This document shows positions 165 to 60,150 of a stretch of 64,000 nt of DNA, piece after piece. Location: NCBI GenBank assembly GCA_001791325.1, contig MGEK01000023.1, forward strand, positions 4,405 through 68,404. The letters run 5' to 3'. This DNA is from Candidatus Uhrbacteria bacterium RIFCSPLOWO2_01_FULL_47_25 (GTDB taxonomy: Bacteria; Patescibacteriota; Patescibacteriia; GWA2-46-9). Below the pieces are notes generated by a model, which was given only the letters and a program-made list of their open reading frames with translations, ran no database searches and was not told the DNA's origin. The translations under genes were made by a program, and so were the position numbers. Each line of letters opens with the position of its first letter. The stretch's first letter is position 1.

Positions 165-222
165 GTGAAGCTCCTCGGCTTTACCCCGCTGCGGCGGGGC
201 GGAGTGGCATTCTCTAACGGGG
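165..222. repeat. GC-rich hairpin repeat module plus solo TIR half (GTGAAGCTCC-TCGG-CTTTACCCCGC-TGCG-GCGGGGCGG...TCTCTAACGGGG)
   Basis: Same core as 42423-42484 and 60002-60045; ends in CTAACGGGG, the terminal motif of the TIR elements. Confidence 0.7.
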
Positions 223-242
223 TAAAATTCTATTCTATATGC

Positions 243-929
243 TTACAAAGAATGCCCACCGACCACCCTGTTAATATCAATCCAATCTTGTAAATCATTT
301 TGAGTGCTAACATACCCTTTGATATTTATTGCCGCACCCTTGTGGATACCAAGGTGTAGATGCTTTCGTTCATGATCTGTCTCATTGCTATACGCATTAC
401 CCAAAGCAGCGATTTTCTCTCCGGCGATAACTTCTTGACCCACTGAAACTGCAACACTGGCTAGGCGTACATGGCCATAAATAACTGTCACGTCCTGATT
501 GTCAATAACACATCCCTGCACAACAACCCCGCCGTAACCTGAAGCCCACTTTTTCATCAACAACGCCCCATCACAAATCGCATAGACCGGCACATCCTTG
601 TTTTGTTCATCAAAAAATGTTTCAAAATCAACACCTGTATGATAACCACTAAAACGCTCCGGTTGTACCGGTGAATTCTCTGGTGAAATTTTAATGCCAA
701 ACAGCTTTTTTGTAATACGCTTCAAGGCATCTGGCAACGGCCACCCTGACAATGCAGGAACACGTTCAGTTGGAGCTAACTCTGTGTTTTGAGTTATCGG
801 TGGTGAAGTCGTGGACAAAAGGCTCACATCTTGATCCCTGATGATCTCTTTTGGCTGATGATATGAATAGTATATAACCGCCGCCACTACAACGAAGAAC
901 AGTCCGAAAAAGATAAAAGATTTATACAT
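243..929 (-). CDS. M23 family (LytM-type) metallopeptidase, membrane-anchored
   Basis: HTGVDF, YGHV and HLHLG zinc-binding motifs typical of Peptidase_M23; N-terminal TM helix. Confidence 0.8.
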   Translation of the reverse strand: MYKSFIFFGLFFVVVAAVIYYSYHQPKEIIRDQDVSLLSTTSPPITQNTELAPTERVPALSGWPLPDALKRITKKLFGIKISPENSPVQPERFSGYHTGVDFETFFDEQNKDVPVYAICDGALLMKKWASGYGGVVVQGCVIDNQDVTVIYGHVRLASVAVSVGQEVIAGEKIAALGNAYSNETDHERKHLHLGIHKGAAINIKGYVSTQNDLQDWIDINRVVGGHSL

Positions 930-979
930 ACCTTTTTGTACGCATTTATGGTACCACAGTATAATTACTGCCGGAAATG

Positions 980-1447
980 TTACTGACCTTGAACCGGCAA
1001 TAATGATCTTATTTGAATAGACTCGGCGGTAATGCTGCCGTCGCTATTGGCAGTACCGTTCACCATCACTTGTTTGCCAACTTCTAAATCACCGGCACTG
1101 CCCTCGACAGTTTTGCCAATGTTGGTACTGCCCGAAAGAAAAATAATTTTGGAGCCGCCATCACGAAGCTTTATCGTGACGCTCTGGTCGTCCTTGCCGA
1201 TTATTTCTCCGTTGATAAATTCTCCGCCCGCCACATCCCTCCGACCGTTTGGACTACCATTGCGAAATTGCTGTATCATTTGCTGACGTTGTTCGGCAGA
1301 CATATTTTGTAAATTCTGAGAAGCTCCTACTCCGCGGCCTTGCGGTCTTTTACTTTCGGCGTACCTCATTCCGCCATAAAAAGCGCCACCCCCTATGATA
1401 ATAAGAACGGCTCCCGTGATGAGTATTTTGTTCATATATAAACTCAA
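980..1447 (-). CDS. hypothetical membrane-anchored/secreted protein
   Basis: N-terminal TM helix, Gly/Asn-rich C-terminal domain; no recognisable motif. Confidence 0.45.
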   Translation of the reverse strand: MSLYMNKILITGAVLIIIGGGAFYGGMRYAESKRPQGRGVGASQNLQNMSAEQRQQMIQQFRNGSPNGRRDVAGGEFINGEIIGKDDQSVTIKLRDGGSKIIFLSGSTNIGKTVEGSAGDLEVGKQVMVNGTANSDGSITAESIQIRSLLPVQGQ

Positions 1448-1463
1448 TAATAATTAAAATATT

Positions 1464-2687
1464 TTATTCATACCGCAATGCGTCAATAGGGTTTAACTTT
1501 GAAGCTCGCCGTGCGGGGTAATAACCGAAAACAATGCCGATCGCGGCGGACACGCCAAAAGCGAGCGCCACCGAACTCAAAGAAATAGTTGTGGCGATAC
1601 CTGCAAATTGTGTCACGGCCGAGGCTAAAATCCAGCCCAAAAGAATACCAAGACCTCCACCAATAAGAGTGAGCGTAACCGCCTCCGACAAAAACTGCCG
1701 ATTAATATCGCCGCGATGCGCGCCAATGGCTTTCCTTAACCCAATCTCGCGCGTTCGTTCGGTGACCGTGGTCAGCATCATATTCATAATTCCTATACCG
1801 CCAACCAACAAAGAAATGCCGGCGATAGAGGCCAGAAGAATAGTGAAGATGCCGGTCACGCTAGAAGCGGCGGCAACAATATCTGATTGATTAATCACCT
1901 GAAAATCAGCAAGTTGCTGATTAGCAATATTATGACGAGCCATAAGTAACGCCGTAATCTGCTGCTGAATTGCGCTCATGGTACTGGCGTCCTCGGCCTC
2001 AACACTAATCGTTGTAACATAATTGTCGCCCGCTAAAAACCTCTGGGCCGTACTTAATGGCACATACACAGCATCGTCAGGATTACTAAATCCACTGCCA
2101 CCCTTGGATTTAGTAACGCCAATCACTTTGAAATCTACTTTATTAATGCGAATTGTTTGGCCAATAGGATCAACGCCAGCGCCAAATAAATCACTCACCG
2201 TGGTTGGCCCAAGCACTGCTACCTTGGACAGACTCCTCACACTCTGATCAGTAATGAACGAACCGCTCGCAGATTTCACATTACGCACTTCGGCATACGA
2301 CGCGACTGTGCCAATTACAGACGTGTTAGTATTTTTTCCGCGTACAGTGATTTGATAACGACGAGATATTTCTGGCGCCACTGCTTTAGCTAGTGTGACT
2401 TCCTTAATAATAGCGTCCGCGTCTTCTTGCGTCAGCGTCTGGGCGCTTCCCCGTCCGCCTGACACCTGGCTACCGGGGCCGCGCTGGAACCCCGGCGTCA
2501 CGAGCACAAGATTTGAGCCAATTGATTGGATGCTTGATTCAATAGAACCCTGTGCTCCTTGGCCGATTGACACCATGGCAATAACCGAGCCAATGCCAAT
2601 CACAATGCCAAGTATAGTAAGGCTTGATCGCACCTTATTGACGACGATTGCCGCGTATGTTTCTTCAAATAGGTCACTAATCTTCAT
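1464..2687 (-). CDS. ABC transporter permease, MacB/FtsX family (probable start at internal Met MKISDLFE)
   Basis: MacB-type periplasmic domain followed by a C-terminal FtsX 4-TM region; the ORF-table start at 2771 overlaps the upstream ATPase by 77 nt; the internal Met at ~2687 resolves this. Confidence 0.8.
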   Translation of the reverse strand: MKISDLFEETYAAIVVNKVRSSLTILGIVIGIGSVIAMVSIGQGAQGSIESSIQSIGSNLVLVTPGFQRGPGSQVSGGRGSAQTLTQEDADAIIKEVTLAKAVAPEISRRYQITVRGKNTNTSVIGTVASYAEVRNVKSASGSFITDQSVRSLSKVAVLGPTTVSDLFGAGVDPIGQTIRINKVDFKVIGVTKSKGGSGFSNPDDAVYVPLSTAQRFLAGDNYVTTISVEAEDASTMSAIQQQITALLMARHNIANQQLADFQVINQSDIVAAASSVTGIFTILLASIAGISLLVGGIGIMNMMLTTVTERTREIGLRKAIGAHRGDINRQFLSEAVTLTLIGGGLGILLGWILASAVTQFAGIATTISLSSVALAFGVSAAIGIVFGYYPARRASKLNPIDALRYE

Positions 2688-6044: not shown

Positions 6045-6810
6045 TGTATTGATGAAAAAATGGAGGTGGCGCTGGGCGACGATTACCACGGACTCGCCAA
6101 GGGTTTTCTTCGGAATCAATTCTCTTAATACCTAGCGCTTGCACGGTATCGTCATCACGTTCTCCAAAGACGACCACTCGGTCGCCCGGCTGAAGATCTA
6201 ACCCGAACGGAAAACGGGTTTCTGGCGTTACCACAATCCTCAATACTTCGTCGCGACGAGTCTTAATCGCGAGCCCTTGCTCGGTCACTTCTGTCACTTC
6301 ACCAATATGAACGTTTCTAAAACGAGGCGCGCCATATTCACGGTAAAACGAACCAGCAAACGGCAGTCTATCGCGTTCAGCCCGCTCTAAGAGCCGTGAG
6401 TGGAAGGTGGTTTTTATAACCAAAAATCCGCCAAGCAAAGCAAGCGCAATTACCATCAGTGCTGAAATGAGAAGAGGGCGCCGGTAGGCGAAGGCATAGT
6501 GTCGCACCAAAAGCTCAAGGATAATTATAAAAACTATGGCGAGAAGAATGAGAAGCTTTGGCAAAGACCAGAGGAAAACGGCAAATCCGTGCCAGCCAAA
6601 GGCCGGCATAAACCACACCCCGCTTGCTCTCAAAGCAAACATGGCTAAGCTCACAACAAAGAGCAGAGTTAACCCAGCCAGGGCAATGCCGGCGACCACA
6701 AGCGTGGCTTTGAGCATAAAATGCCAACGCGGACGCATAGTCACTTCACCGCCCCGAATGCGTTCTAGCACGGCTTCGTGAATGGATTTTTTGTGTGGTT
6801 TATCATTCAT
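6034..6810 (-). CDS. putative anti-sigma factor / membrane protein
   Basis: 4 predicted TM helices; overlaps the 3' end of the ECF sigma gene by 8 nt (typical sigma/anti-sigma arrangement). Confidence 0.45.
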   Translation of the reverse strand: MNDKPHKKSIHEAVLERIRGGEVTMRPRWHFMLKATLVVAGIALAGLTLLFVVSLAMFALRASGVWFMPAFGWHGFAVFLWSLPKLLILLAIVFIIILELLVRHYAFAYRRPLLISALMVIALALLGGFLVIKTTFHSRLLERAERDRLPFAGSFYREYGAPRFRNVHIGEVTEVTEQGLAIKTRRDEVLRIVVTPETRFPFGLDLQPGDRVVVFGERDDDTVQALGIKRIDSEENPWRVRGNRRPAPPPFFHQYNGQ

Positions 6811-7372
6811 AAAACGGGTGTAATTTTTTATAAACTTTGCGAAGCATCTCTTTGCCTCGCTTTAATCTAACGCCAACGGTGGAGACTGGTAATTCCATAA
6901 TGTCGCTAATTTGCTGATAATTTAACTCCTCAAAAAAATATAAAACCAATGGTTCGCGATACTTTGGATCCAAGTCATGAAGACACTCCTCAAGCACTGC
7001 TCGTAGTTCCTTTTCATTAAAATCTCTATCAGCACGGTCGGAAGAAACGGGGTGAGGGAATATGGTATCAGGATCAAAGAAAAGCAGAGGCGCGTGGCGA
7101 CGTTTTTTGATGGCGTTCAAAAACTCGTTGTGCGCAATGCGGTATAGCCACGGCGAAAATCTGCGCCGCGTGTTGAATCCTTGAATGTTAATGTAGGCCT
7201 TTATAAAAACCTCCTGCACGAGATCTTCCGCGTCCTCAAAACCAAAAAGAAATCTTCGGGCATAACGCAACATCTTTTCCTCATATCGTTCCATTAGGAG
7301 GGAGAATGACTCGGTATCGCCGCCCTGCACACGCGCCGCTATTTCTTCATCGGTATCAGTCAAATTCGGCAT
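6803..7372 (-). CDS. RNA polymerase ECF-type sigma-70 factor
   Basis: Sigma70 region 2 (LVQEVFIKAY) and region 4 (LNYQQISDIMELPVSTVGVRL) motifs. Confidence 0.85.
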   Translation of the reverse strand: MPNLTDTDEEIAARVQGGDTESFSLLMERYEEKMLRYARRFLFGFEDAEDLVQEVFIKAYINIQGFNTRRRFSPWLYRIAHNEFLNAIKKRRHAPLLFFDPDTIFPHPVSSDRADRDFNEKELRAVLEECLHDLDPKYREPLVLYFFEELNYQQISDIMELPVSTVGVRLKRGKEMLRKVYKKLHPFYE

Positions 7373-8912: not shown

Positions 8913-9410
8913 ATCGATCGTGGTGTTGTTGATTTATGTAAAAAAGTAGATTCAAATAAAATTAACCACAGCCAATCTCTTCTCCGAAGAGGTTGCTGTG
9001 ATGATAAGTCTGATTTTGGACCAATGTAACCATAATGCAATCATTGTAATTTAATGATTATTTTCTGTCAAGCGGCGGCATATAACAGCCCTGCCACCTT
9101 CTGTCGCAATTGCGACAAAAGGTGGTGATAAAACCAGCCCCGCTTGGCGAGGCTGATAATCCTGCAACGCAGTGATGGAATGTTTGAACTCTAGCAAGCG
9201 TTAATTTGTCTTTTAACGTTCCAGCTCCTCGTTGGCGACGATCTGTACTTTAGCGTTAATGGTGGAGCCCCACGGGTTTACCCATGTCACCTCTCCACAC
9301 CTTCTCGCGCATTCATCTACCCCCCGCCGCGGCGGGGGGCTTTCTGCGAAGGAGGGTAAATTACTACAGTACTTTGCCATCGACAGCCCCCAGCACGATA
9401 ATAGACCATG

Positions 9411-9445
9411 CATAAAGCCCCCGCCATGGGCGGGGGCTTTATGGA
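9411..9445 (-). terminator. GC-rich hairpin 20 nt downstream of HU stop (AAAGCCCCCGCC-ATGG-GCGGGGGCTTT)
   Basis: 12-bp perfect stem; the U-tail is partly inside the stem, so an intrinsic-terminator function is uncertain. Confidence 0.4.
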
Positions 9446-9746: not shown

Positions 9747-10130
9747 ACTATAAATTTAAAGAATTAAATGAAGCCACTGGCTTCACCCCGCCAAGGGCGG
9801 GGTTTATTAAATCCATATCGCTTCATCCCTACGCTCACGCGCAGGATATTCGCGGGGATTTAATAAAATGGTACGACCTTTATAATGTTAATAACATATT
9901 TAATACTAAGGAAAAGTATACACGAGAGCCACTAATAGGGCAACACCCCCCGGACAGGACCAAATTCTAAGCTCTAAGTACGAATTTCTAAACAAATTCC
10001 AAGTCCCAAATTCTAATAACTCCAATAAGTTTATAATTTGTGATTTCGGATTTGTGATTTGCTTAGCCTGCCTGCCGCGGGCAGGTATTTAGAGATTAGG
10101 CATTCGAAATTACAACAAAAACCAACATTC

Positions 10131-10817: not shown

Positions 10818-10872
10818 AAGCTATAAGCCGTAAAACAATAAAATCAAAAAGGCAAAAGTACAAGTTCAAGGT

Positions 10873-10932
10873 CAAAAGCTTTTGAATTTTGCATTGTAAT
10901 TTTGACTTCTAACTTTTGAATTTTGACTTCAA
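10873..10932. repeat. 60-bp repeat copy 1 (CAAAAGCTTTTGAATTTTGCATTGTAATTTTGACTTCTAACTTTTGAATTTTGACTTCAA)
   Basis: Near-identical to 11448-11507; overlaps the stop codon and last 7 codons of gene 10909..11403. Confidence 0.85.
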
Positions 10933-11403: not shown

Positions 11404-11447
11404 GACAATAATTCAAAAGTTAAAATGTAAAAGGCAAAAGTGTAAGT

Positions 11448-11507
11448 CAAAAGCTTTTAAATTTTGCATTGTAATTTTGACTTTTAACTTTTGAATTCTG
11501 ATTTCAA
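11448..11507. repeat. 60-bp repeat copy 2
   Basis: 55/60 identity with 10873-10932; overlaps the stop codon and last 7 codons of trxB. Confidence 0.85.
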
Positions 11508-12494: not shown

Positions 12495-13556
12495 TCATCG
12501 CAACCCGCTCCGTATGAATGATGGCTCTAAAACCTTGAACACACTAACCGGTTTTAAAATTCGCCCCGTTGATTCCAAAAACTCTAACAGTCTTTCGCCG
12601 CTGCCATAAAGAGAAGTAATATCATTGCCGTAAGTGAAAGCAATGGCATTGCCGGCAAAATTCAGCAGCTCAATACCACGAAATTCATCTTCTAAATTAG
12701 CCAATGTTACCCCCGACGCAATGGCGGCAATGGCCATAACTTCCTGCCTTTCCGCTTCGCCGTGTTCAAAATAATCAATAACATCAAACCAAGCTCTCAA
12801 AAAAGCGGCAACTTTTTTCGGATGAGATAAAACATATTCTTCGCGAAAGGCGATGACGTTTGAAATGAGCCCCGGGGTTTCGGCTGAAGAGAAAAGAAGA
12901 TGACTTTGCCGCCGCGCGACAGCCAAACTCAAATAAGGTTCAACGCTCACTACGGCATCAACGCGATGAGCCAAAAAAGCGCGCACCGCGCCTAATGGTT
13001 CTTGCGGCACGATAATCACGTCATCTTCAGACAACGCGGCGCGTCTTAAGGCCTCTTGAAAAAGGAGGTGCCCAAAGCCTTGAACCGGAACAGCGACGCG
13101 ACGTCCTCGCAAATCCTGGAGCGATTGAATATCCGGCACCGCCACAATACCATCAGCCCCAGATGAATAATCAATACTGGCCACTACTTTTATTGGCAGC
13201 CCCTCCGCTGTCAAGCGCAATGGTTCAGATAGCACAAAAGATCCGCCATCAGCTTCTCCTTGACGCAATGCTTCAACGGCGCGCTCATAATTACCACCGA
13301 CATCAATAATTTTCACTTTAAGGCCATACTTTTTAAACAAACCCCTTGATTCAACCGCATAAATAAGTCGTGAGGCTGGCCAGGAAGTTACAACAAAATT
13401 CAAATCAACCGGTTCTAAACGACGATACAGGACTTGCCAACCAAAAACCAAGGTCAGTATCACGATGACGGCAACCGCGGCGATGTTAATCCGTTTGAGC
13501 ATGGACTTAGACAATATCTTCCCGTTGTTCGCGGAAAAAGCCGAGCACATCCTCAA
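12495..13556 (-). CDS. membrane-anchored substrate-binding protein, NMT1/SsuA-like family
   Basis: N-terminal TM plus periplasmic-binding-protein type II fold resemblance; weak. Confidence 0.5.
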   Translation of the reverse strand: MRMCSAFSANNGKILSKSMLKRINIAAVAVIVILTLVFGWQVLYRRLEPVDLNFVVTSWPASRLIYAVESRGLFKKYGLKVKIIDVGGNYERAVEALRQGEADGGSFVLSEPLRLTAEGLPIKVVASIDYSSGADGIVAVPDIQSLQDLRGRRVAVPVQGFGHLLFQEALRRAALSEDDVIIVPQEPLGAVRAFLAHRVDAVVSVEPYLSLAVARRQSHLLFSSAETPGLISNVIAFREEYVLSHPKKVAAFLRAWFDVIDYFEHGEAERQEVMAIAAIASGVTLANLEDEFRGIELLNFAGNAIAFTYGNDITSLYGSGERLLEFLESTGRILKPVSVFKVLEPSFIRSGLR

Positions 13557-15150
13557 ATACTATCAAAAACGATTTGAATGGCGCTTCCAATAAATAGTCA
13601 AATAAATACAGAAAGACATTGAATTTAGCTGAAGTTAAAGAAACAAACTGGCCGACTCGCAAGATAGGTAAAGAGAAAAAATTAATGAGCACCAATAAAA
13701 TATTTTCCCGCTGACTGCTCACAAAAAGATCGCGCACTGGTTGACGAATACGAATGGCAAAAAAAGAAACAACGGTTAAAAAGAGCAGAAAAAATCCTGT
13801 GCCAATAAAGGTGAAGTGTAAACGATGCAGGATTAAAATAATTCCGCCAAAAGTTATGGTGAAGGTAAGAAGATAAAAAAGCGAAAATACACTAACCAAA
13901 AAAACTGACGAACCGACCGGATTTTTAACTTTAGAAAATACCCGGCGTTCTCCTCCATAAAGCAGCTCTATCATTACCCTAACAACTTCTCGGGTATTTG
14001 TCCGACCCGGAAAACGGGTGGTCGCCGTCAATAAAAACATCAAGCTAGGAGGAAAAACCGTGTTAATAACTATGGGGGTAGCAAGCACGGCGCCATAGAT
14101 AAATTGTTCGGCCGGGGCTTCGGCTATTAAAGCCAAGATAATCTTGGTTAAAAAAATATATACGGTAGCACGAACGGCGCTACGGTACAAACGACGACGG
14201 GTGCCGCGATAATATTTTTGACAAATCTCCTCTAGCTCGGATCGTAATCTTGGTTCGTTCAATAAAAGCTCACGAGCTCCGCCGGGGTATTTCATGGCGA
14301 TATCTTTCAAGGCATGAAAAACAATGACGCGAGACTTTAAGGCGCGATATAGTTTTAAACCAGCGGGATGCCGCAAGGCCTGTTCAGTATTGAAATACTG
14401 CCGAGAAAGCGATGGCCATAAAGACGACATATCCTCGGCGCGTCGTGAGCGCCAATCCGGCATTTGCTTTAATAATAAAAAAAAGTGTAGTGTCTGAGGA
14501 TCAAAAGCAAACAAAGCACGATAACAAGCGATAAACACCTGTCTTTCTTTCTCTTCCGAACCCAACGACCAATCCATAAGCGGGTCGTCTTTAATGACGT
14601 AACTAACCATAAGATTCACTAGAGCCTGATGCTCTGGAGAAGGAGCGAGTTCGTCATCAAGCTCTGCCGAAAGTAAACCCAACAACCAAGCCTTAGCTGT
14701 CTTTTTTTCGTTCGATTTATCCTGCTCCATGAGATTGAAAAGAACAGCATAACGATCAAAGATGGTCTGCACTTTGGGCACAATCGCTTCGGGAATGGAA
14801 TCATTCCTTAAGTATTGCGCCTGCACTAGTTCAATTAAAAAAGGACGAGCGAACTCATGCCAGTCGCCACGGTCTTCAAGCTGACGTCTCACGATCCGTT
14901 CAATGGCATGCCGTCTTAATAGGTGCTCTTCACGATAATCCAGGCTATAACGTAATTTTTCATATAATGCCGCCGCTCCAGAAATCACGCTGGAAACGTG
15001 AATGTAAGAACCTTCCAATGTTGAGACTGAAGACTGTTTCTGCGAGAGATTGGCTAAAAACGCCTGAACCGGCGGCGTCAGTGTTTTGACTGAAATCGTT
15101 GCCTCTTTGGCACCTAAATTCTTTGGTTTGCTCAATGCGGAGATGGGCAT
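13507..15150 (-). CDS. hypothetical protein with soluble N-terminal half and polytopic C-terminal membrane half
   Basis: Long ORF; ATG lies 1 nt after TIR element B; 50-nt overlap with the downstream gene. Confidence 0.5.
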   Translation of the reverse strand: MPISALSKPKNLGAKEATISVKTLTPPVQAFLANLSQKQSSVSTLEGSYIHVSSVISGAAALYEKLRYSLDYREEHLLRRHAIERIVRRQLEDRGDWHEFARPFLIELVQAQYLRNDSIPEAIVPKVQTIFDRYAVLFNLMEQDKSNEKKTAKAWLLGLLSAELDDELAPSPEHQALVNLMVSYVIKDDPLMDWSLGSEEKERQVFIACYRALFAFDPQTLHFFLLLKQMPDWRSRRAEDMSSLWPSLSRQYFNTEQALRHPAGLKLYRALKSRVIVFHALKDIAMKYPGGARELLLNEPRLRSELEEICQKYYRGTRRRLYRSAVRATVYIFLTKIILALIAEAPAEQFIYGAVLATPIVINTVFPPSLMFLLTATTRFPGRTNTREVVRVMIELLYGGERRVFSKVKNPVGSSVFLVSVFSLFYLLTFTITFGGIILILHRLHFTFIGTGFFLLFLTVVSFFAIRIRQPVRDLFVSSQRENILLVLINFFSLPILRVGQFVSLTSAKFNVFLYLFDYLLEAPFKSFLIVFEDVLGFFREQREDIV

Positions 15151-15151
15151 A

Positions 15152-15308
15152 CCCCGTTAGAAGTCCCGCCCATTCGGCGGGCAGGCCTCAGAAGACAAAA
15201 TTCTCTTAAGAATTTTGTCTTCTATGGTAACTAGAATATTTAGTTGGTTGGTAGATTGTATCATATATAAAAGATTGGATATTGTGCTAAGTCAGACTTC
15301 TAACGGGG
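15152..15308. repeat. TIR element copy B (CCCCGTTAGAAGTCC ... GACTTCTAACGGGG)
   Basis: Perfect 14/15-bp TIRs; internal hairpin AGAAGACAAAATTC-loop-GAATTTTGTCTTCT; ends 1 nt before the ATG of gene 13507..15150. Confidence 0.85.
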
Positions 15309-15490
15309 CACAACATTGATGGAATATAGAATGTGGAATATGGAATATAGGTATTAATTGTTGGGGAATTCTGATTTTCATAAACTTGATTCTAAATTCT
15401 ATATTCAATATTCTGCATACAACACATAGTATATCATACCTTCACGCTTTCATTATACATCATAACATGGTCAAGACACTAAATGATTGA

Positions 15491-18722: not shown

Positions 18723-18729
18723 AGCATTG

Positions 18730-18832
18730 GAAGAATATAAAATATGGAATATTGAATATATTACTTGCTATGTAGAATCAATCGTTGTAGCTCACGTTCT
18801 ATATTCCAAATTCTATATTCAATATTCTAATC
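18730..18832. repeat. TATATTC(A/C)A(T/A)ATTCT repeat cluster upstream of mreC (inverted and direct copies)
   Basis: GGAATATTGAATATA at 18745-18759 and TTCTATATTCCAAATTCTATATTCAATATTCT at 18797-18828; same motif at 15321-15351, 15393-15414 and 52411-52446. Confidence 0.7.
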
Positions 18833-21375: not shown

Positions 21376-21479
21376 AATACGAAATATTCTTACGAAAATA
21401 CGAAAATGTACGAAAAAATGGCTTTTTCTCACGTTGAAACGATATTTCGTATATTCGTAATATTTCGTACGTTCGTATG
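21376..21479. promoter_or_regulatory. array of direct and inverted TACGAAA / TTTCGTA heptamers immediately upstream of proS
   Basis: GAATACGAAATATTCTTACGAAAATACGAAAATGTACGAAAAA ... ATATTTCGTATATTCGTAATATTTCGTACG; same motif family upstream of three other genes. Confidence 0.5.
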
Positions 21480-21558: not shown

Positions 21559-24500
21559 CTAAAAAACCACAATCTGCCCGATCACTGACAAACCGTTAAC
21601 GGTTGGGGCTAGACGCGAAGTGCGGCCCTCGGCCTTGACCAAAGAAAGAATTGACTGAATTGAATCGCCAGTGGCCGCGCCAGTGGCGTCCACCACCACA
21701 TTGAAAGTCAAAGCCTGGCCCGGCTTCAAAGTTGGCCCGCCAGTCAGCAGATTGCCGCCTACTCCCCCGACCGGACTGGCAACCGTACGGGAAACAGCCC
21801 GTCCGTTACTGGCGTCAGTCAGACGCAAATTCTTATACCCGCGCGTGACCGAAAGACCGCTTGATGACGATGTTTCAGTCACTGTTAATTCCGGCACAGC
21901 CACGTCCTCGGCGCTGTCAACAGTCATGGTAAAACTGCCAATGATTGTTGACGCGGTCTTGGCTGTTTGACCGCCAGTAAAATTATTGTTTAATCCAAAA
22001 CTGACTTTGCTTTTTTTGAAAATAATTGCCGGCGTTATGCTATTTTCAAGTTGCACCGGAACCTTGGTTTTGGAAACCGTACCCGTGGCCATCACGTCCT
22101 GCACCGTAAACTGGATAGTTTGACCGTCCACGGCGGTGGTGGTATCTATCACAAGATCAAATCCCGATTCACTGCCAGCGTTGATTTCAGTAGCCAAAGC
22201 AAATATGTGAGGATTGCCGTTCGGAGCAACGATCCCTTTGCCACCTAATTTTAAATTACTGTAGCCATCGCTAAATCTCACGGGAGTCGTGCCCACCGCG
22301 CTCAATGTCACTTGTTCAACTCTTACTCTCTCGCCGGCGCTCGGCTGGAATAAATAACGACCAATCTTGAAATTCTTTACGCCGGCCGGAGCCGATGAAG
22401 ATGGTTTAAAATTAGGATCATGGCGCACCCGCAAGGTTATTTCCTGCACGTCTCGCACTGCCGCTGTTACGGCCGCGGAAAAAGTCAAACGATCGGCGGT
22501 ACCCGGCACCACGAAGCTGGCATTAGACAATTCCACCTGATAACGATCGGCAGTGCTGGCGGCGGCGTCAACATTACCGACAATCTCAATGGTGATAACC
22601 TTGCCGCTCTGAATAGTGGGAGGGTTAGATAAATAAATTGTCTGAACTTGATTCATAACACTCGCGGCGCTGACCGAGCCAATGGCCGATCCTCCCTTAA
22701 TCTTGATGGTCACGCTCTCCGACAAAGGAGTGTAAGGAGCAGCCGTTAAAATCTTCACGCCTATTTTTTCAAACAGCAGCGCCTGCCCAAGCGCCTTAAT
22801 ATCAAAAGCGGCAAGTACGGCATCGCGGGCGCCGCGCGTGATCGCCCCGCTTGGGCTTTGCGCGTTAAGATCAACGAGCACCTTGCCGGGTTCAATGAAG
22901 ATAGCATTAAAGGCACCGTTGGAACGGCCGCCAACTGGGAAGTTCCCATCCGCCGGGCCGGCTCGCGCCGCCAGAGCGTAACCATTAGTCGCGCCCTTGG
23001 CAAAAATATCATAATCATTTTGAATGATAAATTGCGAGGTGTTGTTTGAACCGCCAACGATGTCGGCGCGCAGAGCGATTTCCTTACTCTCGCCGCGGCG
23101 CAGACGATAAGAATTTTTGCCAAAATCAATTAAAATACTGCGGCCGCGAATGGTCGCGTCTTTGGCAATTACTTTATTGGCATCGTCCACTAATTCATAT
23201 TGCCCAAAATCAGAAACCTGACCGTTGCCGAGCTGGGTAAAAATCAGGCGCTCTAAAAGCACATCCTCGGCGCCACCGGCCACAGAAAAACGCCACCGAT
23301 TTAAAATTTGATCAGCTGTGCCAATAACTATATTTCTAGGTGAACTGGCAATAACCACTGAATCAACTGACAATTGACCGATAATTGCCGTAGCCGGCAT
23401 AACGGTATGCGTAGCGCTCGCCAAAGGAAAACTACCGCGCACAACAGCGCTCGCTAAGACTGACGAGGCATCAATAATAGTCAGATAAAAAGTCTTCTGC
23501 GAAACGGCCGTCGTGGAAGCGAAATTAACCATGACGGTTAGAATTCTCGGTTGGCCCGGTACAACCACTACCGGATCGGCCAAGGTGAAACTCGCCACGC
23601 CGTCAGCGAATCTTTGTGGATTGGTCAGTAAAAATCCTTTCTCATCCAACAGGGCCACGCCATCAATCTCTGCATCGCTCATAAAACCGCGCTTGGTAAT
23701 CTTTAAAGAATTGAGCCGCACTAGAGCATCAACGGCGCTTAAATTAATAGTCCAGACGCGATTGCGTATGGTGCCGGCCGGAAAAATAGTGGCGGCAATA
23801 TCCGAACCGGCGCTAATGGTTAACGACGCACCGCCTGCTGGCGGCGAAACTGGCGTTGTCAACTCAAGGGGGCTCGTTATGGCATAACCTTCAAGCGCCG
23901 CCGCAGGTACTGTTAATATTTTAGACCACGAAAAACCTTTGGCCACGAAAATTTCCGGCGAGGGTATAGGCGCTCTGGTTTGCTTTTCTAGATCCAAATA
24001 AAAAACCTTTTGATCACTGGGAGCTCGCGCTAAGCTAGTGTTGGGGTACATGCGAGCATCGGAATTGCTGATTTCAAAAATGTTTTCCCACTTCTCGCCG
24101 CTGTTTATAAAACTCACTTCTGTAGGAAACCAAAATTTTTGACTGCTCGCCTTGTCCAATAAATAAACTCTCGACCCCAACGAAGATTTTATCAACCTAA
24201 CGTTTGGCAATTTGTCCAGCGCCTCGCTTGATATTGTTTCTATTTTTCCGCCCGCGTAACTATATGAACCAAATGAAGTCGGCGAGAGAAAAAGATATTT
24301 GTGCCCGCGTACAACCGCGTAAATACTGGGTGATCCCTTAACCTGCAACAATCGCACTGCCGCCCTATCTAAGAGCGAGGCCGCCCGAACACCGCTCGCC
24401 GTTGTGCCAAAAATAAATAAGGCAACGGCTAGAACTGACGCCGTTATGATAAATCCCGCACCTTTCCACCCCGCCGTTGCGGGGTGGAAATGATTGATTT

Positions 24501-24612
24501 GATATCCCATCGTCCCCGTGGCAACCTGCCTGCCGGTAGGCAGGGACACTTGGGGTATCCGAGAAAGGTGCGGGATAAACGACTTTAATTTTGACGAGTG
24601 GACGAAAAACAT
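21559..24612 (-). CDS. large (about 1000 aa) secreted/surface protein, beta-rich, N-terminal membrane anchor; true start probably the internal Met at ~24510
   Basis: Single N-terminal TM, Thr/Ser/Gly/Val-rich repetitive beta-like sequence; first 35 codons of the ORF-table model overlap a GC-rich repeat. Confidence 0.6.
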   Translation of the reverse strand: MFFVHSSKLKSFIPHLSRIPQVSLPTGRQVATGTMGYQINHFHPATAGWKGAGFIITASVLAVALFIFGTTASGVRAASLLDRAAVRLLQVKGSPSIYAVVRGHKYLFLSPTSFGSYSYAGGKIETISSEALDKLPNVRLIKSSLGSRVYLLDKASSQKFWFPTEVSFINSGEKWENIFEISNSDARMYPNTSLARAPSDQKVFYLDLEKQTRAPIPSPEIFVAKGFSWSKILTVPAAALEGYAITSPLELTTPVSPPAGGASLTISAGSDIAATIFPAGTIRNRVWTINLSAVDALVRLNSLKITKRGFMSDAEIDGVALLDEKGFLLTNPQRFADGVASFTLADPVVVVPGQPRILTVMVNFASTTAVSQKTFYLTIIDASSVLASAVVRGSFPLASATHTVMPATAIIGQLSVDSVVIASSPRNIVIGTADQILNRWRFSVAGGAEDVLLERLIFTQLGNGQVSDFGQYELVDDANKVIAKDATIRGRSILIDFGKNSYRLRRGESKEIALRADIVGGSNNTSQFIIQNDYDIFAKGATNGYALAARAGPADGNFPVGGRSNGAFNAIFIEPGKVLVDLNAQSPSGAITRGARDAVLAAFDIKALGQALLFEKIGVKILTAAPYTPLSESVTIKIKGGSAIGSVSAASVMNQVQTIYLSNPPTIQSGKVITIEIVGNVDAAASTADRYQVELSNASFVVPGTADRLTFSAAVTAAVRDVQEITLRVRHDPNFKPSSSAPAGVKNFKIGRYLFQPSAGERVRVEQVTLSAVGTTPVRFSDGYSNLKLGGKGIVAPNGNPHIFALATEINAGSESGFDLVIDTTTAVDGQTIQFTVQDVMATGTVSKTKVPVQLENSITPAIIFKKSKVSFGLNNNFTGGQTAKTASTIIGSFTMTVDSAEDVAVPELTVTETSSSSGLSVTRGYKNLRLTDASNGRAVSRTVASPVGGVGGNLLTGGPTLKPGQALTFNVVVDATGAATGDSIQSILSLVKAEGRTSRLAPTVNGLSVIGQIVVF

Positions 24613-31410: not shown

Positions 31411-31411
31411 C

Positions 31412-31654: not shown

Positions 31655-31761
31655 CGCGCCCTCCTTCTTTCAAACTTTGGGAGAAGCGACCCGCAACGTT
31701 TCGCTTCTCTGGTTTCCATAGTTCACTGTTGCGGACGGGTATTTATAGCACAGGTTATGTA

Positions 31762-36977: not shown

Positions 36978-37406
36978 AATACATAATAAACACTAAACTC
37001 TAAGCACGAATTTCTTCAGCCCAAGGCTGATCCGCCTCGGGCGGAAAACTCTAAATTACAAACATCAGTGATTTGGGTCATTGAGATTTCGAACTTAATC
37101 ATTGTTTAGAGATTAGAAATTATTTGAATGTAACAATGTAACTATGAATAGAAAAGCATCACGAGCAAAATAATAAATCCTATTGTCCCCAATGTCAGCA
37201 TAGACGAGATTAAACCAACAACAAAGGCCTGCTTAGACGTTAAGCCGAATCTAGAGTTATCATTTGATACGATCATTTCAACGTGATCGGCCTCATCAAA
37301 ATCCGGATCAAATGGAATTTGCTGTTCTAAATTGGGAGAATGGTGAATCATGAATTATGAATTATTCTTACGAAATATTATGGCCATACAGCTTATGGCT
37401 TACAAC

Positions 37407-42372: not shown

Positions 42373-42422
42373 ACTAATAAATCTCCAAAATTCCTTATTA
42401 TTGTTTTTTGTTTTCCGATAAT

Positions 42423-42515
42423 GGAGCTTCCCTGCTTTACCCCGCCGCGGCGGGGCGGCGGGATGGCATCTTGACGGACGGGGTTTTGTGGAGCGCTTGC
42501 CTGCCGGCAGGCAAG
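42423..42515. repeat. GC-rich hairpin repeat module upstream of cfa (…CTTTACCCCGCCGCGGCGGGGCGG… then CTTGCCTGCCGGCAGGCAAG)
   Basis: Core shared with 165-222 and 60002-60150; a second perfect 8-bp hairpin follows. Confidence 0.7.
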
Positions 42516-49410: not shown

Positions 49411-49449
49411 GACACCAAAATAAAACCGCCCCGCAAAGCGGGGGCGGCT
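49411..49449 (-). terminator. strong Rho-independent terminator of the major pilin gene
   Basis: GCCGCCCCCGC-UUUG-CGGGGCGG stem followed by UUUUAUUUU on the minus strand, 24 nt after the pilin stop. Confidence 0.8.
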
Positions 49450-51805: not shown

Positions 51806-51961
51806 AACTCAATAATTTCTAAATCCTAAGCTCTAATTTTTAAACAAATCACAATATCTAAATCACAAATAACAAACAGTTTGGAACATTGGGATTTCGT
51901 GCTTAGTTATTGTTTAGAGATTAGAAATTAGATATTAGAGATTACCATGGTGGGGTGTTAT

Positions 51962-52438
51962 TTAATCGCTTCTTTCTTCCCAAGAATTAATGGTGACAAT
52001 ATTTAAACTGCCTGGAATCTGTGCGACCACGGTTATAACGGCCTGAATTTTTTTATAATAACTGCCGCTCTGCCCAAGTATTGTCAGGCGGCGCTGGTTG
52101 CCCCCTAAATCCACAACACTTATTGTACACGAACCATTGACAACTGGAAAACTCGGGGATCCTGTATAGCCCGCATCTAAACGCAAACGCCGCATAGCCT
52201 CTTCCAGACACCCATCCGCGACGGAAAATGCTTCACCGCCCTTTTGATATGTATAACCAAGCTCAAGCTCGCCCAAGCCAAGCAGTGAAGCGCTAGTAGC
52301 CATAGTTAAAGCAACCACGCCAATGATTAAAACCGTTAAGAGGGCAGAGAAGCCAACAGGGTGTTCAGGCGTTAGCTTATTAGCTTGTAGCTTTTTAGAC
52401 CCTGACCGATTTTCTATATTCAATATTCTATATTCCAT
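51962..52438 (-). CDS. pseudopilin-like protein
   Basis: PVG/FSALLTVLIIGVVAL prepilin-like hydrophobic N-terminus; N-terminal codons of the model lie in a TATATTC repeat. Confidence 0.5.
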   Translation of the reverse strand: MEYRILNIENRSGSKKLQANKLTPEHPVGFSALLTVLIIGVVALTMATSASLLGLGELELGYTYQKGGEAFSVADGCLEEAMRRLRLDAGYTGSPSFPVVNGSCTISVVDLGGNQRRLTILGQSGSYYKKIQAVITVVAQIPGSLNIVTINSWEERSD

Positions 52439-52444
52439 ATTCTT

Positions 52445-53044
52445 TCACTGCCTAACACTCACGGCCATACGCAGACTTTGTGAATAATTATATTCTACAT
52501 CATTGGAATCATTTTTGTAGGCCACGGTAATTTCCACTCCGATATTTTCGCGCGCATTACCGCCGCCGTAATTACGAAACACCAAATTAGTAGCTTCAAC
52601 CCTACTGCCGGTAATAGACACGGGCTGACTGGCGCCTTCGCTAATTTGAATCGCGCCGTTTGCGTCTACATCAATCACTGTTGGATTTTTTAGAACATCC
52701 GCCATGACGAGCGACAACCTGCCTGGACTGCTGTCAAAAACCGAATCACCGGCATTAACTCCCGTGGCCGCCTTAATGCGCTGGCTAATAATCTCAACAG
52801 CTATACGAGCATTGGCCTGCACTTCCTGCGCCACATAAGTTTTATTGCGCACCCCGGCCACAGACAAACTATATGAGATAAAAGTCACGGCCACGCCGCC
52901 AATAACGACAATATAAATGAGCAGCTCTATGAGAGTGAAGGCTCTAGGCATTAGCTTATTAGCTTGCTCGCCCCGTGCAGTCCCGCCTGGCGGGACGAAG
53001 CGGGGTAGCTTTTTAGATAAAAATTTAAATGTTTTATCAATCAT
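52445..53044 (-). CDS. type IV pilin-like protein
   Basis: AFTLIELLIYIVVIG prepilin N-terminus preceded by a 40-aa extension containing a GC-rich hairpin insertion. Confidence 0.6.
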   Translation of the reverse strand: MIDKTFKFLSKKLPRFVPPGGTARGEQANKLMPRAFTLIELLIYIVVIGGVAVTFISYSLSVAGVRNKTYVAQEVQANARIAVEIISQRIKAATGVNAGDSVFDSSPGRLSLVMADVLKNPTVIDVDANGAIQISEGASQPVSITGSRVEATNLVFRNYGGGNARENIGVEITVAYKNDSNDVEYNYSQSLRMAVSVRQ

Positions 53045-56844: not shown

Positions 56845-57261
56845 TTATGAACGCGCCGCGCCAATGTCCTCCTGTTTCTTTTGTTTCATAGCCAAATATT
56901 TACGTACTTCCACGCCAAGTTTTGTGATAGGAAAATCGGTTTTGACTAAATAACCGACGGCTCCGAGGTCCAAACCTGTTTTGATATCTGAATCCTGACC
57001 TAAATTGGTTAAAATAACTACCGGAATATTCTTGGTATGAGCGTGAAGTTTCATTTCACTTAAAATATCAAAGCCGTTTTTGTGCGGCAGAACGATATCA
57101 AGAATAACTAAATCCGGCTTCTCGTTCATAACCTTATTCAATCCTTCATCACCGGAAATCGCCATGCTAACCTCAAACCCCTCGCGTCGCAACTGGTCAG
57201 TATATAATTTATTCAGGAATTTATCGTCTTCAATAACTAAAATTTTGGCCGTATTTTCCAT
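56845..57261 (-). CDS. single-domain response regulator (CheY-like receiver)
   Basis: Receiver-domain signature (KILVIEDD... conserved Asp and Lys); ATG 1 nt after TIR element E. Confidence 0.85.
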   Translation of the reverse strand: MENTAKILVIEDDKFLNKLYTDQLRREGFEVSMAISGDEGLNKVMNEKPDLVILDIVLPHKNGFDILSEMKLHAHTKNIPVVILTNLGQDSDIKTGLDLGAVGYLVKTDFPITKLGVEVRKYLAMKQKKQEDIGAARS

Positions 57262-57262
57262 A

Positions 57263-57389
57263 CCCCATTAGAAGGCCTTCCCAGCCCCGCCTAGCGGGAC
57301 TGATAAGATAAGCGGTTGAATGAATAATAATAGTTACGTTGGCGGTTTATAGAGAGTGGATTAATCATAAAGACGGCCTTCTAACGGGG
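57263..57389. repeat. TIR element copy E with co-varied termini (CCCCATTAGAAGGCC ... GGCCTTCTAACGGGG), filling the HK-RR intergenic space
   Basis: Termini changed AAGTCC to AAGGCC on both arms, keeping complementarity; ends 1 nt before the response-regulator ATG and starts 7 nt after the kinase stop. Confidence 0.8.
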
Positions 57390-57396
57390 CATATCC

Positions 57397-58137
57397 TCAC
57401 TTTTGCTTCTTTAATTGTACAGGTAAAAAGAAGTAAAAGGTAGAGCCATCTCCGAGGTTGCTCTCAAACCAAATTTTACCGCCGCTTTGTTCAATAATGG
57501 CCTTAGTGATAAATAGTCCTAATCCGGACCCAGTCGGCAGTAATTCAATGGCTTTGCGGCCTCTGTAGAATTTTGAAAAAATTTTCTTTTGCTCCTCCTT
57601 GGAAATTCCAATTCCGTTATCTTGACAAGAAAAAATAATCTTTTGCCCAACCTTCTTTAATCTTATTATTATTTCACCACGACCTTGTTCATAGCGCATG
57701 GCGTTATCAATAATATTATTGACGGCTTGCTGAATTTTAGTCGCATCAACACTAACGAGAGGGATTTCTCCCTCGGGCATAAAAGAAATAGAAGCATTGG
57801 TCGCGCGGGCAAACGTCGCGACATTATCAATTGTGTCTTTGATGAGTTTAACTAAATCGGTCGGCTGTATATTAAGTTTCAGTTCTTTTTGGTCAATTCT
57901 CGCGGCATCCAATAAATCTTTCACTAAAGATACCATTCTATCCACCTCGTCTAAGGCTATGTGCAAATATTCCTGCTGATTTTTAGTTAAAGCACCTAGC
58001 TGGCCGGATAATATTACTTCAAGAGATGATTTAATGCCAGCTAATGGAGATTTTAATTGATGGGCTATGATTGAGGTTACCTCAGATCTGATATCATGCT
58101 CCGGGGTACTTCTTTTTTTATGTTGATGGTGTGGCAT
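57397..58137 (-). CDS. sensorless cytoplasmic histidine kinase (HisKA + HATPase_c)
   Basis: H-box IAHQLKSPL; N, G1, G2 boxes; no TM or sensor domain. Confidence 0.85.
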   Translation of the reverse strand: MPHHQHKKRSTPEHDIRSEVTSIIAHQLKSPLAGIKSSLEVILSGQLGALTKNQQEYLHIALDEVDRMVSLVKDLLDAARIDQKELKLNIQPTDLVKLIKDTIDNVATFARATNASISFMPEGEIPLVSVDATKIQQAVNNIIDNAMRYEQGRGEIIIRLKKVGQKIIFSCQDNGIGISKEEQKKIFSKFYRGRKAIELLPTGSGLGLFITKAIIEQSGGKIWFESNLGDGSTFYFFLPVQLKKQK

Positions 58138-58138
58138 T

Positions 58139-59827
58139 CTACTCTTTGGTTACACGAATTACTTCAGTGAGGGTGGTAATGCCATTCAAAACCTTAACGA
58201 CCCCGTCTTCCAACATAGTAGTCATTCCCTGACGACGCGCCGCCGCCATAATCACATCACTAGACGCCCGTTCAATAATTAACGGCCTGATATTTTCATT
58301 CATTTCTAAAACTTCAAAAATTCCAATCCGGCCTTGATAACCGGTACGACCGCACACCTTACAGCCCGGGCCGCGGTAAAGACGCAAAGAAGAAAGATTC
58401 TTCGTTTTTTTACGAATGCATTCATTCAGGGACGGCTCGGCCGCGATAAGTTTTTTCTCCTCATTAGTTAAGATGTATGAAGCGCGACAGGCGGAGCAAA
58501 TTTTTCTGACCAACCTTTGAGCAATTGCCACATTGACCGTTGAGGCCAATAGAAACGGCTCAATACCCATATCTAATAATCGCGGTAAAGTAGTAGCGGC
58601 ATCATTGGCGTGCAAGGTGGAAAGGACGAGATGCCCGGTCATGGCGGAATTCACCGCGATACCCGCTGTTTCCTCGTCCCTGATTTCACCAACCATAATA
58701 ATATCCGGATCTTGCCTCACAATAGACCGCAATCCCTTAGCGAAAGTCAGATTGGTTTTTAGATTCACCTGAATCTGACTGACGCCCTCAATATCGTACT
58801 CAACAGGATCTTCAATGGTGGCGATATTAACGCCTCTGGTGTTCAAAATTTTCAAAACCGCGTACACCGTAGTCGTTTTGCCGGAACCGGTTGGACCGGT
58901 AACCAACGCCATACCATGCGGTTTTTTAATGGCTCGCTTCACTTTTTCCAAATCACTATCCGATAACCCCAAATCAGATAAACCGAATTGCCGACTATTC
59001 GCGGAAAGAATGCGCATCACCACATTTTCTCCGTGACTAACCGGCACAATAGAAACTCTAACATCTACTCCCTCCTGATCCGCCTTAAACTGAAACCTGC
59101 CATCTTGTGCCGCTCGATGTTCGTCAGTTGGCAAACGGGAAAGAATTTTAATCCGAATCAGAATTAATTCAAATAAATCGCGCGGTAAATGCAAGACGTC
59201 GTGTAAAATACCATCAATGCGAAAACGGCAAAGCGCCTCTTTGGCGTAAGGTTCAAGGTGAATATCTGAAGCCCTGTTTTGATAGGCATAATTAAGCAAG
59301 AGATCAACCGTTTCAACCACTAGCTGATCATACTGCTCACGCGACAGGGCGGTGGCCTGAGCCCTCTCAAGCAAACCCGCAAAGGCATCGGACAAACTTG
59401 GACGATATCTATCCAGAGCGATTTCCAAATCGCGTCTAGTCACATAATAAGGAATGACTGGCTCTCCCAATCTCTTTTCAATAAGATGCTTCGTTTCAAT
59501 GTTGTCCGGATGCACCATGGCCAAACGGATACCTTCGGCGGTTCTGTCAATAGCAGCTACGCCCTGTGATTTTGCCACCAATTCAGGAATCAGGCGTACA
59601 ATATCATCGTCAATACGCTCTTGGCTAAGATTCATAAAAGTCCAGCCCGAAGCCTCGGCGATAACCTCTCCCAATTGCTCGTCTTTTATTAAATCCTTAT
59701 CAATTAGTACCTCCTCTACATCACGATTTTTATCCTTGGCTTCGCTTAAGGCCGCTGTAAAATCCGCTTCTGATACATAGCCCGGTGGAACCAGTAATTG
59801 CCGCAATTTTTCTGGAGTGATGGTCAT
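58139..59827 (-). CDS. pilB: type IV pilus assembly ATPase PilB (GspE family)
   Basis: Walker A GPTGSGKTTT, Asp box, His box, tetracysteine motif CSAC...CKVCG. Confidence 0.95.
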   Translation of the reverse strand: MTITPEKLRQLLVPPGYVSEADFTAALSEAKDKNRDVEEVLIDKDLIKDEQLGEVIAEASGWTFMNLSQERIDDDIVRLIPELVAKSQGVAAIDRTAEGIRLAMVHPDNIETKHLIEKRLGEPVIPYYVTRRDLEIALDRYRPSLSDAFAGLLERAQATALSREQYDQLVVETVDLLLNYAYQNRASDIHLEPYAKEALCRFRIDGILHDVLHLPRDLFELILIRIKILSRLPTDEHRAAQDGRFQFKADQEGVDVRVSIVPVSHGENVVMRILSANSRQFGLSDLGLSDSDLEKVKRAIKKPHGMALVTGPTGSGKTTTVYAVLKILNTRGVNIATIEDPVEYDIEGVSQIQVNLKTNLTFAKGLRSIVRQDPDIIMVGEIRDEETAGIAVNSAMTGHLVLSTLHANDAATTLPRLLDMGIEPFLLASTVNVAIAQRLVRKICSACRASYILTNEEKKLIAAEPSLNECIRKKTKNLSSLRLYRGPGCKVCGRTGYQGRIGIFEVLEMNENIRPLIIERASSDVIMAAARRQGMTTMLEDGVVKVLNGITTLTEVIRVTKE

Positions 59828-60001
59828 AAATACTATTGATATTTTATCACACGATCTTAGTAATTCAAAATCAATGGCTGCTGCCCATGCGAACGCCCTA
59901 GCCTAACACAAATCTCCACGCCCGTCAATGGCATGGCACCCCATTGCCTAGATGATATATTTTTCAATAATTCGTCTGTTACTATACTTGAAAGTATGAT
60001 A

Positions 60002-60150
60002 GTGAAGCTCCACGACTTTACCCCGCACCGCGGGGTGGCCTCCCCAAAAATTTGGGGTGGAGCGAAACCCCGCACCGTCCGCCCGGGGCGGACTGGTGCG
60101 TTGGGTAAAACTCCATGGACTTAATCCCTGCCCGACGGCTAACACGACCC
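60002..60150. repeat. GC-rich hairpin repeat module (GTGAAGCTCC...CTTTACCCCGC-ACCGCGGGGTGG...) upstream of pilB
   Basis: Shares a roughly 45-nt core with 165-222 and 42423-42484. Confidence 0.7.

Follow-up and report, generated by a model that had tools for sequence, protein, structure and literature searches.

Short palindromic repeats scattered between bacterial genes fall into several described kinds. The repetitive extragenic palindromic (REP) sequences and bacterial interspersed mosaic elements (BIMEs) of enterobacteria and pseudomonads carry a tetranucleotide head beside a GC-rich imperfect palindrome, occur in tens to hundreds of copies and form inverted pairs (REPINs), which are moved by the transposase RAYT. 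BOX of Streptococcus pneumoniae (boxA-boxB-boxC), ERIC, RUP and Correia/NEMIS are intergenic elements of about 100-200 nt whose end modules are conserved and whose middle varies, whereas miniature inverted-repeat transposable elements (MITEs) and the IS200/IS605-derived PATEs are small, non-coding and have hairpin-forming ends. Genomes of the candidate phyla radiation measure about 1 Mb and are usually called streamlined and poor in mobile DNA; a literature search, directed at REP sequences in this radiation and at MITEs in Patescibacteria, turned up no description of REP- or MITE-like repeats there. Here we analyse a stretch of 64,000 nt (hereafter the window) from Candidatus Uhrbacteria bacterium RIFCSPLOWO2_01_FULL_47_25, contig MGEK01000023.1, for which an earlier reading of the letters alone (the sequence-only reading) had proposed a dispersed family of GC-rich hairpins. 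Our best explanation, to which we give a probability of roughly 0.6, is a lineage-specific, small, non-coding, mosaic palindromic repeat family of the REP/BIME, BOX or MITE-like kind in the intergenic spacers of a groundwater Uhrbacteria clade.

Identification of the repeat family

The analysis covered 84 kb of the genome (the 64-kb window and 10 kb on each side) and one further locus of the same species, L026; other contigs and loci are likewise cited by L number. The window has 46% GC, is about 88% coding and carries nearly all genes on the minus strand. Proteins identical to those of the window are found in Candidatus Uhrbacteria bacterium RIFCSPLOWO2_12_FULL_46_10, of the same species as Parcubacteria GW2011_GWA2_46_9 (Rifle groundwater). 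The core motif AGCTCCN4CTTTACCCCGC, searched with up to three mismatches, gave four matches in the window against 0.13 expected, namely the three core copies listed by the sequence-only reading and one match with three mismatches in coding DNA at 23232. The hairpin CCCCGC-N3-8-GCGGGG occurs nine times against 0.02 expected, and 18 of 37 strong GC hairpins fall in intergenic DNA, which makes up 12% of the window, with three more in doubtful 5' extensions of open reading frames (ORFs). Family motifs are 6-8 times denser in the non-coding 12%, and the intergenic placement that had been proposed holds for all copies.

Scanning metagenomes with the 5' box of the element alone returned 54 loci, 12 of which are true relatives, all from two Uhrbacteria genomes. 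When the search was relaxed and an nhmmer profile applied, seven distinct full-length and about nine partial copies emerged. The other metagenome loci were chance or coding matches, for example in an ornithine carbamoyltransferase gene. A scan of single-genome contigs with CTTTACCCCGCN{3,4}GCGGGGYGG produced 11 single matches scattered over unrelated taxa; all lack the 5' box and are attributable to chance. Scans of viral contigs yielded chance matches only. Rfam 15 gave no match at the gathering score and none on any copy at E values up to 5, and no tRNA or tmRNA genes were found in the searched sequence. The heptamer repeats in the spacers prompted a test for HIP1 (GCGATCGC), a signature of cyanobacteria, which has no site.

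Modular architecture of the element

The shared core of about 45 nt described by the sequence-only reading is part of a longer element with a conserved 3' box that had been overlooked: read on the strand carrying the 5' box, the full unit measures about 107 nt. It opens with a near-invariant 5' box of 19-23 nt, GTGAAGCTCCAYGRCTTTA (module 1), followed by a slot for a variable GC hairpin (module 2) that nearly always has CCCC at its start and GGGG at its end and exists as CCCCGC-loop-GCGGGG, TCCGCC/GGCGGA, CCACGGCT/AGCCGTGG or CCCCGTTAGAAAT-ATC-ATTTCTAACGGGG. The succession of 5' box and CCCC...GGGG hairpin is found in all copies. An optional second hairpin (module 3) may follow, and the middle region comes in two types, CCTCCACAGAGATTTGGGGAGCGAAA or CTTCTTGCCGAACGGGGTTCCGTGGAGCGGA. 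The GGAGC box (module 4) pairs back to the GCTCC of the 5' box; this GCTCC(AC) x (GT)GGAGC pairing is present in 11 of 11 copies tested with 3-10 bp, and reaches at least 5 bp in all except L040_7099. After an optional CCTGCC...GGCAGG hairpin (module 5), the unit closes with the palindrome ACCCCGCACC-(GC hairpin)-GGTGCGKGGGT, also seen as (T)GGTGCGT(T)GGGT, and a TAA (module 6). Nearly all palindromes of these families start with (A)CCCCG and end with CGGGG(T), and short, truncated and internally deleted forms are common.

Stems stay complementary although both of their arms change, and for the inner stem of the 3' palindrome at least four versions with perfect complementarity exist. Helices were counted by a script that compared explicitly given arms; MAFFT on full copies misaligns the GGAGC box between subtypes, and the resulting RNAalifold output is weak.

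Copies in the window

All three core copies are present on the plus strand, with larger extents than first described. Copy 1 (165-224) is a short form that occupies a whole convergent spacer. Its 5' box (165-187) is followed by the hairpin CCCCGC-TGCG-GCGGGG (184-199) and a GGAGT that pairs back to GCTCC, and its end, ATTCTCTAACGGGGTA, is the terminus of a second repeat system of this genome, the terminal inverted repeat (TIR) family. A TGA in the 5' box (166-168) serves as the stop codon of the upstream plus-strand gene according to the gene calls in L080/L085, which give this gene 253 aa and a start to the left of the window. Copy 2 (42421-42515) consists of a degenerate 5' box (ATGGAGCTTCCCTGCTTTA), the hairpin CCCCGC-CGCG-GCGGGG, the box GTGGAGCG and a CCTGCC hairpin, CTTGCCTGCCGGCAGGCAAG, which replaces the usual 3' palindrome. 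Copy 3 (60002-60108) is full length, with the 5' box, the hairpins CCCCGC-ACC-GCGGGG and CCCCAAA/TTTGGGG, a GTGGAGC box that forms 7 bp with the 5' box, the 3' palindrome ACCCCGCACC-GTCCGCC-CGG-GGCGGAC-T-GGTGCGTTGGGT and a final AA. It is extended on the same strand by a weak inverted 5' box, AACTCCATGGACTT (60109-60122), that is absent from other copies. Both copy 2 and copy 3 are antisense to the genes on either side.

Two further copies form a subfamily B, which starts with GTGGAGCCCCACGGNTTTAC and ends with GGAGGGTAAAT. The first (9262-9361, plus strand) reads GTGGAGCCCCACGGGTTTAC ... CTCTCCACAC ... CCCCCCGCC-GCGG-CGGGGGG ... GGAGGGTAAAT and contains the hairpin CCCCCCGCCGCGGCGGGGGG, rightly flagged before as related but located at 9320-9339 and not at 9311-9330. 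The second (31122-31335, minus strand) carries about 95 nt of additional nested hairpins and lies in the spacer 31118-31761. This spacer of 644 nt has an unusually high GC content (55%), dense nested hairpins and no Rfam match; it also holds the repeat CCCTGCGTAGTCCCGCCGAGCGGGACGAAGCAGGGTA, further copies of which stand at 52971-53007 and 57275-57311.

Several hairpins assigned to the family before turned out to be something else or to lie elsewhere, some of the given coordinates being off by 9-12 nt. The CCTGCC hairpin is a genuine module; its solitary copy CCTGCCTGCC-GCG-GGCAGG, of the second-hairpin kind, stands between heptamer repeats at 10067-10085 and not at 10055-10075. The hairpin at 15165-15181, thought to be of the same type, is a different one (CCCGCC/GGCGGG) within a TIR element. 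Those at 24466-24487 and 24525-24544 (TTTCCACCCCGCCGTTGCGGGGTGGAAA and CCTGCCTGCCGGTAGGCAGG), listed with the family, are nested in a separate, standalone palindromic element at 24451-24580 with ends CCCGCACC/GGTGCGGG (AAATCCCGCACC / GGTGCGGGATAAAC), which resembles in kind the 3' module of full-length units. As had been noticed, this element reaches the 5' end of a surface-protein ORF of 1017 aa: it overlaps every public start call of that ORF (983, 996 and 1017 aa; window 24451-24612) and may be the source of its present N-terminus or start codon. Finally, the hairpins at 9411-9443, 9785-9803 and 49426-49447 do not belong to the family, being terminator-like and devoid of the 5' box. With its perfect 15-bp stem, flanking A/T runs and position downstream of the HU gene, the one at 9411-9443 looks from its sequence like an ordinary bidirectional terminator, and so do the other two.

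Gain and loss of copies between species

In the window's species we count the three window copies, one full and one partial copy in the 10 kb to the left, one copy on L026 and the two subfamily B copies. The 84 kb thus hold five main-type copies (one partial) and two of subfamily B, about one per 12 kb. The sister species Ca. Uhrbacteria RIFCSPLOWO2_02_FULL_48_12 (48_12; L023/L065, L024/L040, L037/L043, L038 and L071/L072) has at least eight copies at non-orthologous sites, four of them within 8.5 kb on L040, where a single gene separates two. Both middle-region subtypes are found in both species.

The two species are syntenic around Nramp-pilB, with coding DNA 71-73% identical, PilB 80% identical and spacers that cannot be aligned. 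The boxes of the element are 79-100% identical between the species, and the repeat families are the only DNA other than genes that the two share. Sequence conservation above the coding level goes together with a lack of positional conservation at copies 2 and 3, so that, of the outcomes that were to count against the family, absence of conserved position in close relatives was found at these copies and absence of conserved sequence was not. The Nramp-pilB spacer that holds copy 3 measures 436 nt in the window; the corresponding spacers of 48_12 (80 nt; L071/L072) and L075 (42 nt) are both empty, and L076, a relative with 94% PilB identity, has a different neighbouring gene and no element at this site. 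Likewise, upstream of the CMAS gene the window has a spacer of 175 nt with copy 2, where L078, an 82% relative, has an empty one of 52 nt; copy 2 is absent from the syntenic spacer of L078/L079, and no copy was found in 21 kb of L078. These filled and empty orthologous sites are seen between species only. Because copy positions differ between the two species, the family has spread or been lost copy by copy.

A promoter-like site, TTGAAT-16-TGTGATAAAAT (59841-59868, minus strand), upstream of pilB is the sole part of the Nramp-pilB spacer kept in the relatives L071 and L076. An M23 peptidase gene (window 243-929; L023 2614-3324) adjoins a family repeat in both species, at a different place and in a different orientation. 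Since the gene differs in place and is missing at the syntenic site of L030, the repeats mark a synteny break.

Mosaic build and link to the TIR family

Parts of the unit, namely modules 1-4, module 6 and the CCTGCC hairpin, are also found singly or combined differently, as is the palindrome CCCCGTTAGAA...TTCTAACGGGG. The 3' palindrome belongs, as a short member, to a family with the ends ACCCCGCACC...GGTGCGGGGT, which stands alone at 24451-24580 in the window and on L026, L027, L071 and L078, and has no match in shuffled sequence. The CCTGCC...GGCAGG hairpin gives five overlapping matches against 0.06 expected, at the three sites 24525-24544, 26625-26640 and 42496-42515; the solitary copy at 10067-10085 is a fourth with a shorter loop. 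In copy 2 and on L023 this hairpin is inserted after GGAGCG.

The TIR-family motif TTCTAACGGGG occurs 14 times against 0.85 expected. Two copies had been said to run into its terminal motif, which is clear in copy 1 (GGCATTCTCTAACGGGGTA) and degenerate in copy 2; copy 1 and the L030 copy share the end ATTCTCTAACGGGGT. On L037, the first hairpin slot is taken by a minimal TIR palindrome (CCCCGTTAGAA), CCCCGTTAGAAAT-ATC-ATTTCTAACGGGG. Given modules that recur alone and recombined, the TIR end of copy 1 and the L030 copy, and the exchanged slot on L037, the suggested modular relation of the two repeat systems is correct.

All four complete TIR elements (CCCCGTTAGAAGTCC...GGACTTCTAACGGGG) abut a start codon with one end, in the form CTAA(C/T)GGGGT|ATG, at 7368-7372, 15146-15150, 29660-29674 and 57257-57261. 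The genes concerned encode a sigma factor (6803..7372), a 547-aa protein (13507..15150), RtcB (29672..) and a response regulator (56845..57261), and the three starts compared with public gene calls (sigma factor, 547-aa gene and response regulator) agree with them. The distal ends of these elements lack an ATG, and the TAA of the repeat is in frame with the ATG.

Nature of the family

Of the functions considered by the sequence-only reading, the REP-like one is best supported: the elements are dispersed, intergenic and palindromic, occur in two species at different sites and show no tie to a gene family. The genes flanking the copies are unrelated and housekeeping in kind, and the elements do not look like regulators of particular genes. 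The conserved boxes and maintained stems would be the recognition target of a protein acting in trans, most plausibly on folded single-stranded DNA, by analogy with REP/RAYT or IS200/IS605-type systems. Any effect on genes would then be a by-product: the elements might insulate transcription units from one another, terminate transcription between them, or donate stop or start codons.

Several observations weigh against a mobile repeat of this kind. Transposase, integrase or RAYT-like domains were detected by Pfam neither in the 84 kb nor beside the copies in 48_12. Terminal inverted repeats are lacking in the element as a whole: GTGAAGCTCC at the 5' end and GGGTAA at the 3' end are not inverted repeats of each other, and palindromic parts are internal only (TTTACCCC/GGGTAAA and sub-modules). 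The flanks of 14 copies contain no consistent direct repeat that would indicate target-site duplication, and no conserved target. Presence/absence polymorphism between strains was not seen: L001-L005 match the window across copy 3, where L005 alone has a scaffold gap, and L077 aligns to the window without gaps at 99.9% identity. The strains sampled, contigs with identical proteins, amount to one clone, and what looks like an indel in L003 is due to a gap in the scaffold. The position of copy 1 seems to be conserved, as L030, syntenic with window 1007-1736, carries a short copy of this subtype next to its orthologue of gene 980..1447, with the M23 peptidase gene missing between them; this fits a retained, possibly useful element. 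Box conservation above that of coding DNA could likewise reflect function rather than mobility. Lastly, orientation is not random. The box strand is antisense in all seven fully resolved same-direction spacers, which hold eight copies (sign test p ~0.016), and all five main-type (GTGAAGC-box) copies in the 84 kb share one orientation, including two in convergent spacers. Because the orientation is kept even in convergent spacers, the bias could track either transcription or replication.

Set beside the described systems, the Uhrbacteria family resembles REP/BIME in that its imperfect palindromes are rich in GC and lie in extragenic DNA only, that a head which is conserved and unpaired adjoins the hairpin, and that its multiple copies show no tie to particular genes, form mosaics with other short motifs in variable order and have neither target-site duplication nor coding capacity. 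It differs in its head of 19-23 nt in place of a tetranucleotide, in unrelated sequence, in single copies of mostly one orientation where REP forms inverted pairs (no REPIN doublet was seen among our copies), in the lack of a RAYT gene within the DNA searched and in its host from the candidate phyla radiation. With BOX and its like it shares the modular build in variable order and number, the length, the intergenic position, a predicted stable fold, full and truncated forms and a mobility that may be supplied in trans. There is no sequence similarity to these elements, and the Uhrbacteria modules, unlike theirs, themselves belong to other palindromic families of the same genome; Correia and RUP also possess clear terminal inverted repeats and target duplications of their own, absent here. 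Like MITEs and PATEs, the family is small and non-coding, with hairpin-forming ends, sites filled in one species and empty in another, and a chromosomal orientation bias such as single-strand transposition would give. It departs from them in having no conserved 4-5-nt target at either end and no parent insertion sequence. In addition, the strand favoured by the wobble pairs would, judging from GC skew and gene orientation, be the leading-strand template and not the lagging one expected by the usual model. As the features that define MITEs, REPIN doublets, attC sites and intrinsic terminators were not all found, we place the family among the small dispersed intergenic repeats in the broad sense and assign it to no named family.

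Alternative explanations

The elements might instead be a family of structured non-coding or cis-acting RNAs, transcribed from the box strand and acting as RNA, for example as antisense, decoy or processing element; the helix between 5' box and GGAGC would close a junction with one or two hairpins, followed by the long 3' hairpin. In seven of seven full copies the computed fold is more stable for the box strand than for the complementary one, and z-scores on the box strand are -2.3 to -3.9. Non-Watson-Crick pairs within helices are mostly G:U on this strand, with five in the box-to-box helix (positions that are G:T wobbles as DNA and would be A:C on the other strand) and one in the 3' hairpin, against one A:C. 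Varying stems that keep their complementarity, boxes conserved above the coding level, the position of copy 1 and the orientation relative to genes all fit such an RNA. Palindromic DNA folds on both strands, however, so the energies discriminate little between them, and the RNAalifold consensus of eight sequences, made from the poor MAFFT alignment, is weak, with a covariation term of -0.8 kcal/mol. Moreover, there is no conserved sequence and no -10 box at a fixed distance upstream of 14 copies and no U-tract after the last hairpin, no Rfam family matches, relatives lack copies 2 and 3 at the syntenic sites and reduced forms abound. We regard an RNA family as unlikely.

A bolder version, which we hold to be a long shot, sees the ~107-nt element as a new functional structured RNA or folded single-stranded DNA of the box strand, selected in Uhrbacteria and spread without target duplication or a nearby transposase. 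It rests on the same box conservation, on stems kept by changes on two arms and on the fixed orientation relative to transcription or replication. If true, candidate phyla radiation bacteria would have a counterpart of REP/RAYT of their own, or the element would be a mobile RNA or ribozyme-like element that is new.

Similarly doubtful is the view that the copies are ordinary signals at gene boundaries that merely look alike, namely transcription terminators or insulators between operons. It accords with the position of all copies between genes, of copy 1 in a convergent spacer and of copy 3 between the Nramp stop codon and the pilB promoter-like site kept in relatives. The gene-sense strand of copy 3 also contains one weak terminator-like site, GGGGTTTCGCTCCACCCC followed by AAATTTTTGG, and several of the hairpins first grouped with the family are truly terminator-like. 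Yet termination does not need a box of 19-23 nt that is near-identical in at least 14 copies of two species. Save for that one site, no T run follows the hairpins of the copies, most of which have no U-tract on either strand; the same genome has canonical terminator hairpins of another build (9411-9443), and relatives lack the element at the same gene boundaries.

The elements might also be site-specific recombination sites delimiting gene cassettes, such as integron attC sites: they lie between genes as imperfect palindromes 60-110 nt long that mostly share one orientation, and the cluster on L040 and the GTTGGGT of some copies, which fits the core GTTRRRY, are in keeping with this; but half of the copies read CGTGGGT so that GTT is not conserved, the inverse core (RYYYAAC) is missing from the 5' end, no integrase gene lies in the 84 kb or beside the 48_12 copies, and what lies between copies is core housekeeping genes whose synteny is conserved, e.g. 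pilB and the ATP synthase genes, which makes this reading extremely improbable. A role as DNA-uptake sequence was ruled out by the rarity of the motifs in coding DNA, and a promoter by the lack of upstream conservation and of a sigma-70-like pair on either box strand.

Consequences for genome analysis and further repeats

The spacers of a single Uhrbacteria genome hold several interlocking palindromic repeat families, whose conservation between species exceeds that of the genes. Such repeats break assemblies, as in the scaffold L005, where a run of N lies exactly over copy 3 (L005 ~2765-2865, window 59963-60063). They probably disturb gene calling too, in that they yield spurious ORF calls and blur start-codon calls; the ORFs called over repeats at 59948-60220 (90 aa, over copy 3) and 31114-31440 have no Pfam match. 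Knowledge of the family aids binning, gene calling and strain tracking of uncultured Uhrbacteria, and provides a concrete sequence for seeking the protein that recognises it.

Other repeats share these spacers. Between histidine kinase and response regulator, an element of 130-170 nt with inverted ends is present in three species (window 57262-57396; L071 5161-5314; L075 5409-5578). Beyond CCCCG(T) its ends differ (CCCCGTTAGAAGGCC, CCCCGTAATACAACATTCAT and CCGCGCCAGAAG), each pairing with its own partner, and its 3' GGGGG precedes the ATG by 6-7 nt in the relatives, like a ribosome-binding site, and by 1 nt in the window. An AT-rich repeat family (...TTTAGAGATTAGAAATTA) at 36994-37122, 51857-51936 and 26557-26607 of the window and 620-802 of L038 is 89-90% identical across the two species, well above the 72% of coding DNA. 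Many spacers also contain short tandem repeats with a period of about 7-8 nt (TTTTGAC/AAAAGTC-like, GAATATA-like or TACGAAA-like), often as inverted blocks, at 10840-10932, 11415-11507, 15319-15428, 18724-18828, 21379-21415, 27897-27934, 29006-29039 and 52398-52451; at one gene boundary, the pilB-kinase spacer, the tandem-repeat units differ among relatives (L071, L072).

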